From: Abditibacteriaceae bacterium
Lineage (GTDB): Bacteria > Armatimonadota > Abditibacteriia > Abditibacteriales > Abditibacteriaceae
DNA length: 18,684 bases
Direction of reading: 5' to 3'
Assembly (NCBI GenBank): GCA_031372065.1
Contig: JANMKN010000242.1
Location: 1 to 18,684 of the forward strand
Shown here: in pieces, positions 1 through 6,000 of the stretch
Layout of the letters: every line of letters starts with the position of its first letter
How positions within the stretch are numbered: the first letter of the stretch is position 1
Program-made: the position numbers

Positions 1-3000
1 AAGAAAAAATTAAATCATTTATACGATTAAAAAATAAAGTATTATACGGTGGTAGTGCTGGTGCAATTATTTTAGGGGAAAATATTTCTTGCCAAAATGA
101 CGAAATTATAACATCTTTTAGTATGGAGTCTGGTCTTTCTCTTATCGACAAATACTCAGTCACTTGTCATTACGAAGGCGACAACGAACAAGAAACCTTA
201 ATTAGGGATTGGGTATCTAAAAACCAGGGTGTCCTCACTTATCGCGTGTGGCGGCTCACTTATCGCTTGTAGGCGCACACTTATCAATAAGTGAGGACAT
301 ACAAGACATAAGTGCGCGCCCACAAACCATAAGTGAGGACATACAAGACATAAGTGCGCTCATGCAGGACATATGAGTGCCTCCACAGGACATAGGAATG
401 CCTCCACAAGCTATCGGAACGTCGCCACATCGCGTCGTGATGTGCCACACTATGACCTTCGGGCTGCCCGCCTTTGTAGCGGATGGTGCGTGTTTGGCGT
501 CAGACCGGTTGAAACCGGTCTCTGAAAGGGCAAAGGCCACCTTCGTGGCCTCGAAATCAAGGTTTTGAGCCTACGAAGGTAGGCTTTGCCCCTCCAGACG
601 CCGGTTTCAACCGGTGTCAAAGCCAAATCTGCACCATCTGTTTGTAGCGCAGGGCAAGCCTTCTTGGAAAGGCGACTATGAAATTCTTTTCATTGCGACT
701 TACGCAGAAATTCAATCTGGTTTTCATTTGTGTTTTTGTGCTGGCCTTATTGGTTGCTGGCATTGTTTTCAATTCTTTGACGCAGCGCAATGCGCGCGTG
801 GCCGTTATGCGTCACGCGGGCATTATGATGGCGAATGCGTTAGCGGTGCGCAAATATACCACGCAGCAAATTAAGCCGATTTTGCCAACCGAGCGCAATA
901 ATCAGTTCGTCGCGCAAACGGTGCCTGCGTTTTCCGCCAAGGCCACCTTTCAATACTTGCGCGCCTCGTATCCCGATTATTTCTACAAAGAAGCCTCGCA
1001 AAATCCCACCGATGCGAATGACAAAGCCACAAAATGGGAAGAAGAAATCTTGGAGCGTTTTCGCAAAGACCCGAATTTAAAAGAACAGGTTCTCACGCGC
1101 AGCACGCCCAAAGGCGATTATTTCTATCTGAGTCGTCCGATTCGCATCGCTGATAAGGCTTGTTTGCAATGTCACACCACACCGGCGCTGGCGCCGCAAT
1201 CTATGGTGCGCAAATACGGCGCAAAGGGTGGCGGCTATGGCTGGAAAATGCACGATGTCGTGGCCGCGCAGATTGTATCGGTGCCAATGTCGGTGCCGCA
1301 AACCATCGCGCGCCAAATTTTTATTACCATGACGGGCGCGTTGGCCTCAGTTCTCATTGTCACGCTGGTAATTCTCAACATCATGTTGCGCGTGATCGTG
1401 GTGCAGCCAGTGACGAAGTTATCGGGCATCGCCGACGAAATCAGCAAAGGTAATCTTCAAGTCGAAGACCTGCCGGTGAAAGGCGCCGATGAAATTGCCG
1501 GTTTGACCGGATCGTTCAATCGTATGCATCGCAGCTTGCGCGAAGCCATTAAAATGCTCGAAGAATAAGCGTAGCGCCGACGAATTTATTCGTTGCTCCC
1601 CATGAAAGAACAGGGCAAGAACTCCCTTATTTTAGGCATTTGCGGCCTGATGTTTGCCGTGGCCGTTTTGGGAGCAGTCGGTTTTCATTTTTTTGAAAAC
1701 CCCGTTCAGCCCACTCTGACGCTTTGGGACAGTTTCTGGTGGGCGATGGTCACCGTAACGACCATCGGCTACGGCGATATTTTTCCCAAAACAGTCGGTG
1801 GGCGGCTTATCGCCCTGTTTTTGATGTTTGGTGGCATTGGCACGCTCGGCATTTTTACCGCCGCGATTGCGGCTTATTTTATTCGCGGCGATGGTTTGCA
1901 GTTGCTGCGCCTCAATCGTTTTCAAGATCATGTCGTGATTTGCGGGTTGGGCGAAAAAGGTTTGCTTTTGACCAAAGCATTTCGGGCGCGCGGGCGCGAC
2001 GTGGCGATCATCGAAGACAACGAAACCAACGAATTTGCGCCCACAGCGCGCTCGTTGGGCGCCATAGTGCTTTACGGCGATGCGCGCGAACCGTCTATGC
2101 TGCGTTCGGCCCGTTTGAACACCGCGCAAAATTTGATTGTGGTCTGCGGCGATGATGGCGTCAATGCCGAAGTCGCCGCGCACGCCCGCGATTTATCGCA
2201 ACAAACAAGCGACGAAGGTGCTATAAATGCCAAACGTTCAAACGGCGATAGGCGCCAAACCAAACGTGTGGGAAAACGCGGCAACCGGCGCAAGCGTGAA
2301 CGCAGTGGCACTTTGGTGTGTAGCGCCCATATTATCAATCCCGAATTGTGGTATTTGCTGCGCGAATGGGAAATGGCAGAGCGCGGTTCGTTTCGCTTGC
2401 AGTTTTTCAATGGTATAGACAGCGCGGCGCGGGCTTTATTGGACGAACATCCGCCTTTTGAGCTGTGCGATACGGAAAAAACGCCCGAAGATCACCTTTT
2501 AAACCCGCCGCGCATCTTGATTGTCGGCGGCGGGCGGCTGGGGCAAAGTTTGCTGGTGCATATCGCCCGCGCGTGGCGCGAAATGGGTTTGGCCTGCGAC
2601 GTTTTGCCGGGCGACTTGCCCAAAATGAAACTGACTTTGCTGGACAAGAATCCGGGACGCATCAGCGAAATTTTGCGAATGCGTCATCCTGAACTGGAAA
2701 AAGTCTGCGAATTAGAAACTCTGGAAATGGATTGCAGCGATCCAGAATTTCATCGCGCCGCGTTCTTGTGGGACGAAGGCAGAAAATGCCGCGTTGAACG
2801 CGTTTATGTGTGTTTGACTGACGATGCCTTGGCTCTTTCGGCGGCTTTGGCCTTGAATGCCCATCTGCGCATAAACAAGGTGCCGATTGTCGTGGCAATG
2901 ACGCAAGAAGCCGGACTTTCATCGCTACTGCGGCGCGTGCGCGAAGTGCAACCGCAATTTCAAACTTTGTATGCTGTTGGCTTGCTCGAACGCGCCTGCC

Positions 3001-6000
3001 AACCCGACCTCGTTTTGGGTGGCATTCCCGAAATGCTGGCGCGGGCGCTGCACGACAAATATGTGGAAGATCAAGAAGCGCTCGGCAACACGCGCGAGAA
3101 AAATCCTCTCATGGCGCCGTGGGACGAATTGCCCGAAGAAGGGCGCGAATCGAATCGCACGCAAGCGTTAGCCATCGGCGAAAAATTGCAATCCATCGGC
3201 TGTGACATCGTGCCGCTTACCGATTGGGATGCGCATACGTTTCGTTTTAGCGAGGCCGAAGTCGAATCAATGGCGAACATGGAACATCAGCGCTGGACAA
3301 GCGAGCGCTTGGCTCAAGGCTGGACTTATGGCCCGCGCGATACGCAGCGCAAAACCAATCCGAATCTGGTGGCGTGGGACAAATTGCCAGACGGCACGCG
3401 CGATTTTAACCGCACCTTAGTGCGTGAAATTCCGATGTCGCTGGCCCGCGCCGGTTTTCAGGTGTTTCGCATGGGAGAGCGGGACGCTTCGGATGAAGCG
3501 GATTGAAGTTTCATTATGCCCAATGCATTGTTATCACAAGGAATACTGCCTTTAATTGTCGGCATCACCGGCCACCGCGATTTGCGCCCCGACGATGTGC
3601 CGCGCTTGGAAACGGCGGTGCGCGAAGCATTGCGCGAATTAAAAGAAAATTATCCGCACACGCCGCTGCTTATTCTTTCGCCGCTGGGCGAAGGCGCTGA
3701 CCGCTTGGTGGCGCGCGTGGGACTGGCCGAAGGCGCCAGTTTGTGCGTGCCTTTGCCGATGACGCGCACTCTTTACGAAGCCGAGTTTGAAAGCGATGCC
3801 TCGCGCGCGGAATTTGCCGAACTTTTGGCAAAAGCTAACGATGTTTTCACTTTGCCGTGGCTGGATTGCAACGATGTGAAAGCGGCCAACTGCGGCCCGT
3901 CGGGGCCTCATGTAGCGCAGCAATATGCGCAAATGGGCGCTTATATCGCGCGCCATAGTCAGGTGTTTCTCGCGTTGTGGGATGGCCAGAAATCCAATGA
4001 AATGCTGGGCGGCACCTCGCAGATTGTGCGTTTTCGTCTCGAAGGCGCGCCGCCACCTTACGGCCCACCGCAAAGTTTGCTCGACCCCGCCGATAGCGCG
4101 CCCGTAATCCATATCGTCACGCCGCGCCAATCGAATCCCCAGCCCGACGGTGCGGCGTTTTCGCGTCAGGATTTGCTGCCTCCCGGCACCGATGCCGCAG
4201 ATCGTGATCGCGCTTTTGCTAACCTCGATAAATTCAACGCGGATGCCGCCGCTAATCCGGCGGCGCAAGAAGCCGGTGCCAGCATCAATATGCTGCTGCC
4301 GACAGAAGATTCGGTTCCGCCCATGCCCAGCGGCGTGCAAGCGTTTTTGCAAACTTTCGGTTTGGCCGACGCCTTGTCCATTCATTTCCAACGCCACATG
4401 ACGCGCACTTTAGAGCGCGTTTTTTCAGCGGTTTTGGTGGCTGCGCTGTGCTTTAACTTGTTCCACTCGCTGCCGCACGCCAGCCATGAAAAACACGGCG
4501 GCGGTCATGGCGAAACCGCTGCGACTCACGGCGAATCTGCGCCGGGCCACGCATCAGACAGCGTAAATTCGCCCGGTGCTATCGCATCGCACGCGGCAGA
4601 TTCGCACGGTGCCGCGCACGCGCCTGTTGAACACGCAGCCACCGAACACGCGCCTGCCGATTCCCATGCGGCCAGTGCCGAACACAGCGAAAGTGCGGCG
4701 GCGATGCAGGAAGCGGGCATTGATGAGCCGCTCATTGACATGGGACATCTGGCGGGCATTCCGTGGTTTTTGTGGCTTTATTTGTTGGTGGTGGCGGGCA
4801 ATGTTTTGTTTCATCGCCGCGCTGAAAAACAAGAATTTCAAAATAAATATCAAGATTATCGGGCCTTAGCCGAAGGCTTGCGCGTGCAGATTTTTTGGGG
4901 TTTGGCGGGCCTGAGCGACGAAGCCGCCGACTATTATTTAGGCAAGCAGCGCAGTGAACTGGACTGGATTCGTCATGCCTTGCGCGTGCGCAATGTGCTG
5001 TCCGATACGGCCTCGCAGGGCAATTCGGCAGGTATGAATGCCGATTCGCTGTTACTGGTGCAAAAACATTGGATTCAAGAGCAGCAGCGCTATTTTATTC
5101 GCAAGACGCATCGCGAATTGGAAGATTTGGAACACTGCGAAAAGCGCATCGAAACCTTGCTGATGTTCAGCGTGGGATTGACTGTGGCCTTGGCGATTAC
5201 CTTAGCCGCGCCGGTTTTCGTGCCTTGGCCGCCGCTCGAAACCTTGAAATTGTGGATCGAAGAGCCGCTAACGCACGGTTTGGTGATGATTTCCATTGTG
5301 ATGTTGGCGGTTTGCGCCGGTTTGCTGCATGGTTATAATCAGCTTAAAGCGCGCGCCGAACACGCCAAACGTTATGGCCGTATGGCGGTTTTATTCGACA
5401 ACGCCGCGCGTCATTTTGAGCGATTAATGTCTTCCGGCCAGACAGCCGAAGTTCCTGCCCTGCTGCGCGAATTGGGCAAAGAAGCCTTAGCCGAAAATGC
5501 CGATTGGGTCATGTTGCATCGCGAGCGTCCCTTGCAAGTGCCACACGCGGCGTAAACTGTTTCCTGCGATGAAATCGCAAGATCACGAAAGTCAGGTAAA
5601 TCATGCCTCTGTGGTTGCAAGCCGGATTTTGGGGATTGGTGGCCGGATTCGCTTTAGTTATCGGCGCGGCCATTGGCTATTTCTTGTCGGTGCCGCAGCG
5701 CGTCATTGCCGCGATTATGGCCTTTGGCAGCGGCGTGCTGATTTCAGCCTTGTCTTTTGACTTGATGGAAGAAGCCTACGAGCGCGGCGGTTTCACCGCA
5801 ACAGGCGCCGGATTTTTGGGTGGCGCGTTGATTTTTACCGGCGCCAATCGCTTGTTGGCATGGCAGGGCGCCAAGCATCGCAAACGCTCTGGCGAGAAAC
5901 ATCCCTCCGAAGACGATCACGAAGGCAGCGGCACGGCTATCGCTGTGGGCGCGCTGATTGATGGTGTGCCGGAATCTATTGTTATCGGTTTGAGTTTGCT

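Follow-up and report, generated by a model that had tools for sequence, protein, structure and literature searches.

According to a report on Thoeris (10.64898/2025.12.03.692087), the bacterial TIR signalling systems characterised so far act against phages, and the validated types include type I (TIR with SIR2-SLOG, signalling by 3'cADPR), type VII (TIR with SLATT, cADPR) and type X (TIR with an ion channel); in its running text, the words 'RyR', 'TrkA' and '4TM' have 0 occurrences. Phages carry RyR proteins acting against TIR-made signals, and RyDEP (PDB 35TM) has the residues H75, W78, phosphate-binding H100 and catalytic D117; of eight tested homologues none cleaved and six bound, and homologues with the conserved residues acted as sponges, not enzymes (PMC13232231). 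The Cache_heme-HAMP (CHH) class was described for a receptor and a Ser/Thr kinase of Pseudomonas azotoformans (10.64898/2026.05.25.727664). In that work NO was found to bind the heme with a slow off-rate, for the Pseudomonas protein only, and the kinase tail with twin GP[LIM]AR repeats was seen on the HAMP by cryo-EM. Formation of the complex was unaffected by NO, and the authors deemed direct receptor control of the flexibly linked catalytic domain unlikely; TIR is not mentioned there.

In the present study, we analysed 18,684 nucleotides of an Abditibacteriaceae bacterium (the window; the genome, G000, is 94% complete). Three genes of the window lie on the plus strand with spacings of 33 nt (g00655 to g00656) and 9 nt (g00656 to g00657). 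The genome-wide survey's note had joined them with a RyR and a TIR gene on contig C363 into one operon, and this five-gene operon is real because the start of C363 overlaps the window exactly. The features are as follows.

230..316, no strand: contig overlap of 87 nt with 100% identity (C363 1-87, reverse complement)
C363 about 1752-1411, same direction, upstream of g00655 via the overlap: small RyR gene
C363 1291-356, same direction, directly upstream of g00655 via the overlap: TIR gene with docking repeats
230..419, no strand: palindromic element with 21-nt repeats, left arm truncated at 230 (both arms present in the C281 copy)
482..638, no strand: second dispersed inverted-repeat element with 53-nt arms, copies on about 20 contigs
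678..1568, plus: g00655, ORF of 296 aa
1161-1175, plus: CxxCH (aa 162-166) in the periplasmic domain of g00655
1602..3506, plus: g00656, ORF of 634 aa, start ATG at 1602
1758..1778, plus: K+ selectivity filter TTIGYGD (aa 53-59)
1926..2204, plus: RCK1 (aa 109-201), GxGxxG at 115-120, acidic E138
2499..2996, plus: RCK2 (about aa 300-465), GxGxxG at 309-314, acidic D349, missed by Pfam
3009..3476, plus: tandem RyR repeats (aa 470-625), H484/Y487/N501/N518 and H562/W565/N586/N603
3516..5555, plus: g00657, ORF of 679 aa
3546..4169, plus: YpsA-like SLOG domain (aa 11-218) with a GITGHR motif (YpsA 2NX2, Z 15.2)
4470..4730, plus: His-rich low-complexity loop between TM1 and TM2 of g00657 (aa 319-405; 13 His in 87), predicted non-cytoplasmic
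5603..6358, plus: ZIP-like transporter, 47 nt 3' of g00657

The same order of RyR and TIR genes upstream of the receptor gene is found in G003, G006, G021 and G023. The gap between the TIR and receptor genes is about 716 nt in G000 versus 10-198 nt in six relatives, because of the two repeat elements. We propose, at about even chances, that the operon is a heme-ligand-triggered TIR second-messenger system of five genes.

The protein g00655 consists of a TM segment, a periplasmic DUF3365/Tll0287 domain, a second TM segment and a terminal HAMP, without an output domain (Pfam: Tll0287-like, aa 36-203; HAMP, aa 241-289). The CxxCH motif is kept in 13/13 orthologues, and by its sequence g00655 is a CHH receptor, a class reported to bind NO; three matches to cytochrome c assembly genes were found in G000. 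The TIR protein (TIR_2, E 1.4e-21) has the motif S-x-QVKRE, with a predicted catalytic Glu75 in 11/11 orthologues. Its C-terminal tail is made of two GP[ML]AR helical repeats, FVGPMARVLVRQH and YMGPLARVLVKRM, compared with IGPLARFLVRKSLN and IGPIARIVVSRALR in the kinase tail. This tail, which is the sole extra domain on the TIR and leaves no further sensor part, may be the docking module for the HAMP of the periplasmic heme receptor. The receptor and its CxxCH, the terminal HAMP and a neighbour with twin repeats are shared with the P. azotoformans system; the partner enzyme is a TIR here, and not a PknB-like kinase. The TIR is the sole GP[ML]AR-repeat protein of G000, as g00655 is its single CHH protein, and no kinase with such docking repeats was found in this 94% complete genome. 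Among 401 genomes of the phylum, 12 of the 14 orphan-HAMP CHH receptors adjoin a TIR-tail gene, one adjoins a cyclase-tail gene and one stands at a contig edge. By domain, 20 tail matches comprise 13 kinases, 2 class III cyclases, 3 TIRs and 2 with neither, and the docking repeat emerges as a general plug by which kinases, cyclases or TIRs are joined to a single class of NO receptor. A model of the HAMP dimer with the TIR tail scored 0.40 against 0.00 for the best control, graded 'weak support' (pLDDT of the partner, 69; at least 94% of contacts agree between runs). The score mark was met by 116/157 solved pairs and 2/215 mismatched pairs, but at <=0.60 by just 18 of the 157 solved pairs, yet by both mismatches.

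In the predicted structure of g00656 (pLDDT 91.4), a 2-TM K+ channel is followed by a tandem RCK gating ring and a tandem RyR (R12) module. Pfam matches Ion_trans_2 at aa 18-94, TrkA_N at aa 111-201 and RyR in two stretches (best, 552-621), in agreement with the domain calls of the survey's note here and in g00655 (Tll0287-like, HAMP); that note rightly had RCK and RyR in the channel, but counted one of each where there are two. The closest structures are those of GsuK (Z 20.3, rmsd 5.9, 399 aligned), and other tandem-RCK rings follow (DMI1, Z 19.4; CASTOR, Z 18.9). Like GsuK, CASTOR/DMI1 and Slo, g00656 combines a 2-TM pore (GsuK-like TxGYGD filter) with two RCK domains per chain, but it adds a C-terminal R12 and is encoded with a TIR, a SLOG-SLATT protein and a heme receptor. 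The RyR module matches the R12 structure 6UHI (Z 13.8, rmsd 3.3, 152 aligned). As in the R12 of animal ryanodine receptors, there is a tandem RyR fold (Z 13.4-13.8) on an ion channel, and the D117 position is taken by Asn, which RyR2 also has there, although the fold stands behind the RCK ring of a small bacterial K+ channel and not in a 5000-residue Ca2+ release channel. In contrast to RyDEP, both channel repeats have Asn at the H100 (N501, N586) and D117 (N518, N603) positions. Among 47 channels with a K+ filter, the D117 position is N in 45, T in 2 and D in 0, and the module is probably non-catalytic, a reader. The H100 position is N in 46/47, which counts against the reading of a messenger by R12.

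The small RyR protein shows H-x-x-W, then H at +25 and D at +17, which is the H75/W78/H100/D117 spacing of RyDEP; it differs from RyDEP in being encoded by the host next to its own TIR. Of 25 single RyR domains, 21 have H/W/H/D by pattern and two more on reading, and the catalytic H and D are present in 25/25. Thus, the small RyR would be the off-switch or buffer of the messenger, an eraser or a sponge. The statement that RyR is the first gene in relatives holds for five of nine operons (G000, G003, G006, G021 and G023); it was not found in G011 or G026, which counts against the heme-sensor reading, and G007 and G008 stop at a contig edge.

The last protein, g00657, had been described as SLATT-like (its DUF4231 match reaches only E 0.059), and its N-terminal SLOG domain was missed. 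Its predicted structure (pLDDT 85.7) has SLOG followed by two SLATT-like 2-TM units, and thus g00657 itself is likely a messenger reader. The SLOG aligns with YpsA over 162 residues (rmsd 2.8), with DprA (Z 10.5) and ShosA (Z 10.2) as other folds, and with the SLOG of ThsA (7UXS) at a Foldseek E of 0.099. YAcAr of Pfam matches 25/69 homologues at E<=0.1 (best, 1.7e-4), and the four inspected singly were all under the cut-off. For SLATT, g00657 lies below the cut-offs itself (NCBIfam SLATT_3, E 0.0017), while at E<=0.1 DUF4231, SLATT_3 and SLATT_1 match 46, 23 and 7 of the 69 homologues, SLATT_3 followed by SLATT_1 occurs in three, and P0231 and P0165 pass a cut-off. The two halves of g00657 failed to align in HHalign (1.1%).

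In the proposed system, the receptor would bind a periplasmic heme ligand, probably NO as in the Pseudomonas homologue. The GP[ML]AR repeats would tether the TIR to the HAMP dimer, as shown for the kinase tail. Ligand binding may then cluster or release the TIR, which would convert NAD+ into an ADP-ribose-type messenger; the kinase authors' doubt about direct receptor control, and the absence of an NO effect on their complex, count against such a switch. This messenger may bind the tandem RyR module and change K+ flux and membrane potential, and may bind the SLOG of g00657 so that the SLATT pore is opened or assembled. The free RyR protein, judging from its residues, would hydrolyse or sequester the messenger and in this way both define a threshold and return the system to rest. 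Most likely the role is a graded membrane response to an outside chemical or danger cue, and not detection of phage proteins inside the cell.

The operon is patchy, being present in 9/27 genomes of the family, which counts against the heme-sensor reading. Orthologues of g00656 at E<=1e-30 were correctly counted in 11/31 genomes of the class; these include distant paralogues in G020 and G022, which have neither the GYG filter nor the receptor gene. The branching of the receptor and channel trees agrees with genus, G008 apart; the operon copy of G008 looks horizontally replaced, which likewise counts against the heme-sensor reading. The restriction to Abditibacteriaceae claimed earlier is wrong for the pair of channel and SLOG-SLATT genes, which is adjacent in 8/72 loci elsewhere; there it goes with other TIR sensors and without CHH, a further point against that reading. 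In family f31, the RyR-CHH-TIR trio stands beside a TPR-S-SLOG-cyclase gene in 4/4 genomes (whole in two, cut by contig ends in two); no RyR channel or SLATT was found in these four modules, and the SLOG of this cyclase protein is matched by the one in g00657 (HHalign 97.2%, E 3.6e-11).

The survey's note had proposed a Thoeris-like system with a TIR messenger, channel and SLATT readers and a small RyR that buffers the signal or switches it off. The RyDEP residues and the TIR genes within 9 kb of 34/80 SLOG-SLATT loci speak for the messenger pathway; the anti-phage part is countered by the docking tail, the mostly housekeeping flanks and the sister module, whose endpoint is a cyclase. Under that explanation, infection or envelope damage would activate the TIR, and channel and SLATT pore, opened by the messenger, would bring arrest or death; the receptor would anchor the system in the membrane, or it would sense damage or the lysis of neighbours. 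We regard this as possible but rather unlikely. The operon does resemble Thoeris types I, VII and X in having a TIR with a catalytic Glu adjoining SLOG, SLATT and ion-channel readers; SLOG-SLATT neighbours are often TIR-STAND/TPR/WD40 (also with kinase sensors), caspase-like or TIR-STING, as is typical of conflict systems; caspase-like genes flank the operon in 3/9 genomes (G003, G011, G026), with TIR-STAND genes in two; and the phage RyR proteins oppose just such signals. However, the TIR has no sensor part but its tail, which appears to dock on a periplasmic heme receptor, the channel is of RCK-RCK-R12 type, SLOG and two SLATT units form one protein, and the host's own RyR eraser or sponge, present in five of the nine copies, fits a reversible signal. 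Furthermore, PADLOC (2023 library) gave no match for the four non-TIR proteins and generic matches for the TIR (ThsB models reach E 0.02 at best); no defence-gene cluster was found among 70 flanking proteins (generic domain matches only), the flanks being mainly glycogen, transporter and two-component genes; and the g00657 family is rare in mobile DNA (one viral contig; part only on 3/72,556 plasmids).

An alternative, which we consider improbable, is that ordinary nucleotides (ATP/ADP, NAD+/NADH or linear ADP-ribose) gate the channel through two RCKs and R12, as in GsuK, a TIR-driven drop in NAD+ or rise in ADP-ribose being read and a special cyclic messenger serving at most the SLOG protein. 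GxGxxG and the acidic residue are kept in both RCKs, GsuK was solved with ADP and with NAD, the R12 of RyR3 was solved with AMP-PCP (title of PDB 9LS7), so that ATP analogues also bind R12, and H100 is lost across the K-filter clade. Against this, the H-x-x-W/Y pocket and its flanking arginines are nearly invariant among 120 homologues, and the free RyR of the operon, whose RyDEP site is complete, together with RyR genes near 18/80 SLOG-SLATT loci, points to a shared special ligand. It is less probable still that two modules (receptor-TIR-RyR and channel-SLOG-SLATT) merely travel together without a common messenger, or that the TIR is an adaptor. Either unit does occur without the other, a glycogen enzyme gene separates them in G008, and the ~716 nt of repeat DNA inside the G000 operon holds strong hairpins; but every receptor-TIR unit seen adjoins a SLOG-bearing gene (SLATT type in f1, cyclase type in f31), 7/8 channel and SLOG-SLATT pairs outside the family adjoin a TIR or DUF4062 gene, and the TIR Glu is conserved in 11/11 orthologues.

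Animal cells have an NO-cADPR-ryanodine-receptor axis. The heme-triggered TIR system could be non-immune, with NO sensed by c-type heme, a tethered TIR, a cADPR isomer acting on R12 of the K+ channel and a RyR glycosidase as eraser; we hold this version only tentatively. If true, it would be a bacterial counterpart of that axis, with R12 as a direct cADPR site and readers (K+ channel, SLATT pore, cyclase) that can be swapped, and TIR messengers would extend to environmental sensing; it looks as if immune-type chemistry were reused for this. No report of heme-sensor input to RyR/SLOG/TIR/channel clusters was found in the literature searched. Tethering to a membrane heme-gas receptor would give the TIR a defined small-molecule trigger, so that no phage would be needed to study how it is activated. 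The RyDEP paper (PMC13232231) raised the question whether cADPR works through R12 on the ryanodine receptors of animals; a 634-residue K+ channel with R12, encoded with its own messenger synthase, would make it testable by single-channel recording.

The ZIP-like transporter stands at the operon end in G000 and G023 alone and is missing from the loci of other relatives; thus, it is probably not a core member. The in-frame TGA codons reported in two relatives have other explanations: in G023 there is a frameshift, and consecutive genes there contain three of them in all, while in G020 the codon simply ends an intact ORF of 667 aa as its regular stop.

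The operon in the window comprises the following genes.

678-1568, + strand: g00655, the receptor gene (Pfam Tll0287-like and HAMP)
1602-3506, + strand: g00656, the K+ channel gene (634 aa; Pfam Ion_trans_2, TrkA_N and RyR), 33 nt after g00655
3516-5555, + strand: g00657, the SLOG-SLATT-like gene (679 aa; Pfam DUF4231 at E 0.059, nothing else), 9 nt after g00656

Reading of the ORFs and Pfam bore out the coordinates and domains that the genome-wide survey's note had assigned to these genes. Their GC content is 0.52-0.59 (genome, 0.53), and thus they do not form an island of recent foreign origin. 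The note had also placed the small RyR and TIR genes at the start of another contig, C363, in front of this block, and this held: bases 1-87 of C363, once reverse-complemented, are identical to window 230-316 and, read toward the overlap end, C363 encodes the small RyR and then the TIR. The overlap sits within a palindromic repeat. In the window its left arm ends abruptly at 230, and both arms are present in the copy on contig C281. Window 1-229 is AT-rich (33% GC) and codes for part of a peptidase S51, which continues into the repeat at 230; this stretch probably stems from foreign DNA that was wrongly joined to the contig at that point. The depth over 10-160 was 2.4 (one contig of run X1) versus 6.95 for the operon. 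When public contigs of four DNA runs from one study were compared with window 1-2000, positions 202-268 were uncovered and no contig bridged 229/230. Two families of dispersed palindromic repeats, an element with 21-nt units and an inverted repeat of ~150 nt, occupy window 230-638; they often lie at contig ends, with copies also on C281, C382, C325, C249, C144 and others (together 54 BLAST matches over 27 contigs). Promoter and terminator scans found about as many sites as chance would give (2 vs 3.6 and 13 vs 12.5, respectively). Farther along, an operon in window 7724-16408 (-) encodes a multi-HAMP/GAF hybrid histidine kinase of 1804 aa along with a REC-PAS kinase, a REC kinase and a further REC protein; as far as tested, this operon has no tie to the present finding.

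The predicted structure of g00656 (pLDDT 91.4) combines a 2-TM pore (filter TTIGYGD) with a pair of RCK domains and a module of two RyR repeats. Thus, the pore, RCK and C-terminal RyR of the earlier description stand, but RCK is present twice and RyR is tandem. The closest structure is GsuK (Z 20.3, rmsd 5.9, 399 aligned), and the rings of KtrA and DMI1/CASTOR also match (Z 18-19.5); residues 470-625 match the R12 domain 6UHI, a ryanodine-receptor-type tandem RyR module (Z 13.8, rmsd 3.3, 152 aligned). The family is broad, with 143 matches among 8000 scored candidates. Of the 120 that were aligned, a K+ filter is present in 49 and a different pore loop, mostly xLQLFxLESG, in 69; the other two have none. 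In a tree of the cytosolic part, built from sequences collected by similarity to g00656, the 47 full-length forms with the K+ filter fell in one branch (support 100) together with three others and one without the pore region. The homologues with a non-GYG pore loop (P0058-P0124) keep the RCK-RCK-RyR-RyR body; they may represent channels that are non-selective or conduct Ca2+, and the pore may have been swapped. The Atlas gave unnamed clusters for them, and Ion_trans_2 at 0.86-0.88. A CASTOR-like filter was weighed for these 69. The gating rings agree in structure, but the CASTOR filter motif had no match in the text of PMC6697748.

The RyR domains of the operon differ in the residues that matter in RyDEP, a phage RyR-domain enzyme in which H75 and D117 are catalytic and W78 and H100 bind (PMC13232231). 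By residue count on the alignment, PDB 35TM is RyDEP, with Q54, H75, W78, H100 and D117 all in place. The small RyR has all four of H75, W78, H100 and D117 at identical spacing. Of the single RyR domains in the examined loci, 25 are distinct and strong. The H/W/H/D pattern matches 21 of them, reading adds two more (PCI was missed by the pattern), and the catalytic H and D are kept in all 25. In the second repeat of the 47 K-filter channels, the D117 position is N in 45 and T in two and the H100 position is N in 46; N518 of the first repeat is likewise present in 46. At the D117 position, 27 of the 69 non-GYG homologues have Asp. Since the channel repeats lack the catalytic Asp and the small RyR has the full RyDEP set, the channel module could do no more than bind, and the free small RyR is predicted to be an enzyme or a sponge. 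PMC13232231 describes eight assayed RyDEP homologues, six of which bound and none of which cleaved.

The note had described g00657 as a SLATT-like membrane protein. SLATT_3 followed by SLATT_1 was seen in three homologues and g00657 has four TM segments, in agreement with this description, but the putative SLATT part is not alone, since a SLOG domain precedes it. The model (pLDDT 85.7) matches YpsA over residues 11-218 (Z 15.2, rmsd 2.8, 162 aligned), followed by DprA, ShosA and LOG proteins; the 3'cADPR-bound SLOG of ThsA matches at Foldseek E 0.099, and 25 of 69 homologues have Pfam YAcAr at E<=0.1. PDB sequence searches with the N-terminus or the family profile gave no match. Predicted structure and the Pfam matches of homologues thus identify the N-terminus as SLOG. 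A His-rich disordered loop lies between TM1 and TM2 (window 4470-4730). It measures 67-157 aa and has 6-18 His in 13 of the 15 nearest homologues inspected (two were not parsed), and is ~25 aa long in two distant ones; together with a downstream ZIP-like gene, this hints at metal binding.

A profile search gave 548 genome loci with g00657-family genes, and within 9 kb of the gene in the best 80 there was TIR in 34 and RyR in 18. Without the eight loci titled Abditibacteriaceae or holding this operon (L035-L040, L043, L049), 72 remain, of which 28 have TIR and 11 have RyR; the chance rate of TIR would be ~1% per locus from the density in the source genome (5 in 6.14 Mb), a figure from one genome for loci that are not independent. 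In eight of the 72, the RyR channel is directly upstream of SLOG-SLATT, so that the operon's supposed restriction to Abditibacteriaceae fails for this pair. These loci are titled Verrucomicrobiia, Vicinamibacterales and other Acidobacteriota, Nitrospirae and one probably mislabelled bin (L041, titled Bifidobacterium breve, with a layout near-identical to the Vicinamibacterales loci), and a TIR or DUF4062 gene adjoins seven of the eight pairs. In L041, L042, L044, L045 and L092 (Acidobacteriota) the TIR gene is convergent, that of L041 being a TIR-Pkinase; three that were examined are without the canonical HxDxKxxN motif.

The input of the operon appears to be g00655, a Cache_heme-HAMP receptor with CxxCH in 13/13 orthologues and a terminal HAMP. 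The receptor of this class from Pseudomonas binds NO and releases it slowly (10.64898/2026.05.25.727664; 10.64898/2026.02.01.703092). It also binds a neighbouring Ser/Thr kinase (Kd ~90 nM) via a pair of helical bundles at the kinase's C-terminus, IGPLARFLVRKSLN and IGPIARIVVSRALR (10.64898/2026.05.25.727664). The C-terminus of the operon TIR consists of two such bundles, FVGPMARVLVRQH and YMGPLARVLVKRM. A search with this tail found 20 proteins, all with precomputed Pfam PF26309 (13 with kinase domains, two class III cyclases, three TIR, two neither), and both G-P pairs of the repeats are invariant in 26 aligned rows. Of the best 150 clusters at 50% identity, 18 combine TIR with the tail. One receptor and one docking-repeat protein are encoded in the source genome. 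It also has genes for cytochrome c assembly, and no ResB was found there. Among 401 genomes of the phylum, the receptor profile had 19 matches, namely five longer fusion receptors and 14 orphan-HAMP receptors, which lie beside a TIR-tail gene (12, the source genome being counted via the C363 overlap), a cyclase-tail gene (1) or a contig end (1). The 14 fall in three families and thus represent few independent events. The predicted complex of a HAMP dimer with the tail scored 0.40 versus 0.00 for the best of three controls (partner pLDDT 69, contact agreement at least 94%), weakly suggesting that the tail would dock there; the mark for this score was reached by 116/157 solved and 2/215 mismatched pairs, and at <=0.60 by 18/157 and both mismatches, and the score may mirror likeness to the kinase complex. 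A metagenome scan with the TIR alignment, which ran on TIR-domain patterns, gave 78 loci averaging 6.1 kb, of which seven have RyR, five SLOG and none the receptor or the docking repeat; it is uninformative on the range of the receptor-TIR pair. By its neighbours, this TIR subfamily is promiscuous.

In all four receptor genomes of family f31, small RyR-receptor-TIR is accompanied by a divergent gene for a TPR-S-SLOG-class III cyclase. This gene is complete in G165 and G220 and truncated by contig ends in G325 and G340; the middle domain of the cyclase aligns with the SLOG of g00657 (97.2%, E 3.6e-11). The RyR channel and SLOG-SLATT were not found in these genomes (90-96% complete). This layout suggests that sensor, synthase and eraser stay as a set while the SLOG-bearing reader changes, and that the small RyR goes with TIR, not with the channel. 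Elsewhere, TPR-S, SLOG-like and class III cyclase domains occur together in one protein, and a single RyR domain often adjoins it or is fused to it (L224:4618-6555 (-), L223:12468-14657, L232, L234, L235, L205, L211 and L085). In genome G304 (L259:1482-3177), the neighbour of the heme receptor is class III cyclase-like and carries a single docking repeat, which gives the docking plug a third output.

Within the family of the source genome, the operon is present in 9/27 genomes. The order RyR-TIR-receptor-channel-g00657 is complete in G003, G006 and G023; G021 keeps it as far as the channel, where the contig ends. G011 and G026 lack the small RyR, in G007 the operon begins at the receptor gene, and G008 has receptor-TIR-glucanotransferase-channel-g00657. 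The channel relatives of G020 and G022, the former counted as an orthologue before, are distant paralogues without the GYG filter. Readthrough of the in-frame TGA reported for G020 and G023 was rejected: in G020 the TGA simply terminates an intact ORF of 667 aa, and in G023 three consecutive genes are frameshifted, probably by sequencing errors. The TIR tree is unresolved, with long branches. Upstream of the operon in four genomes of two genera (L024, L025, L027, L029) is a conserved cluster of bestrophin-like, AGE-family epimerase, GlgX-like, PfpI-like and small proteins.

How should these genes be read together? Receptor-triggered signalling by the operon has, in our view, about an even chance of being correct. 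Its weakest link is the switching of a flexibly tethered TIR; the kinase paper doubts direct receptor control of the kinase's own catalytic domain (10.64898/2026.05.25.727664). The note had favoured a Thoeris-like system. SLOG, SLATT and ion-channel effectors are indeed validated Thoeris parts (10.64898/2025.12.03.692087; PMC9503650), many SLOG-SLATT loci have STAND, TPR, WD40 or TIR-STING neighbours, and caspase-like genes lie beside 3/9 operons. However, the sole extra domain of the TIR is the receptor plug, and for 70 flanking proteins (ORFs >=110 aa, chosen by length from the window, C363 and the loci of eight relatives) all PADLOC matches were generic. Furthermore, the glycogen/epimerase/PfpI cluster is kept upstream, the g00657 family is rare on phages and plasmids, and the receptor and channel trees track genus except for G008, which RecA groups with G007. 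Defence triggered by phage seems to us clearly less probable than receptor-triggered signalling.

Gating of the channel by ordinary nucleotides, as in GsuK, seems to us still less probable. GxGxxG and the acidic residue are kept in both RCK domains, and the residue pattern leaves the ligand of the RyR module unfixed, because structures similar to it show that R12 domains bind ATP analogues as well. Loose co-location of the genes seems to us the least probable. Compared with these, receptor-triggered signalling remains our preferred reading.

We conclude that the operon is a real, conserved and undescribed variant. It resembles Thoeris in its TIR and its predicted messenger and reader, and is at most a candidate member. 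It resembles the Pseudomonas system in receptor, plug and enzyme, but the partner is a TIR, not a kinase. In the literature searched, with most subscription journals outside its scope, we found no description of the receptor/TIR/RyR/SLOG/SLATT/channel combination or of the TPR-S-SLOG-cyclase proteins; Fig. 1C and the tables of the Thoeris preprint (10.64898/2025.12.03.692087) or the RyDEP supplements may list TIR with SLOG-4TM or host RyR fusions. What sets the operon apart is its heme-receptor input, its K+-selective R12 channel and the predicted split between reader and eraser.

Related domains also meet in other arrangements near SLOG/SLATT genes, as AAA ATPase-RyR fusions, one AAA-SLOG fusion and one TIR-RyR fusion (L079:2546-4648, L230:472-3342, L233:8710-11802, L220:896-3754, L226:9553-12147, L179:6983-9490), and a Pelotomaculum contig (L103:1015-4369) carries small RyR, TIR-STING and SLOG-SLATT genes consecutively.
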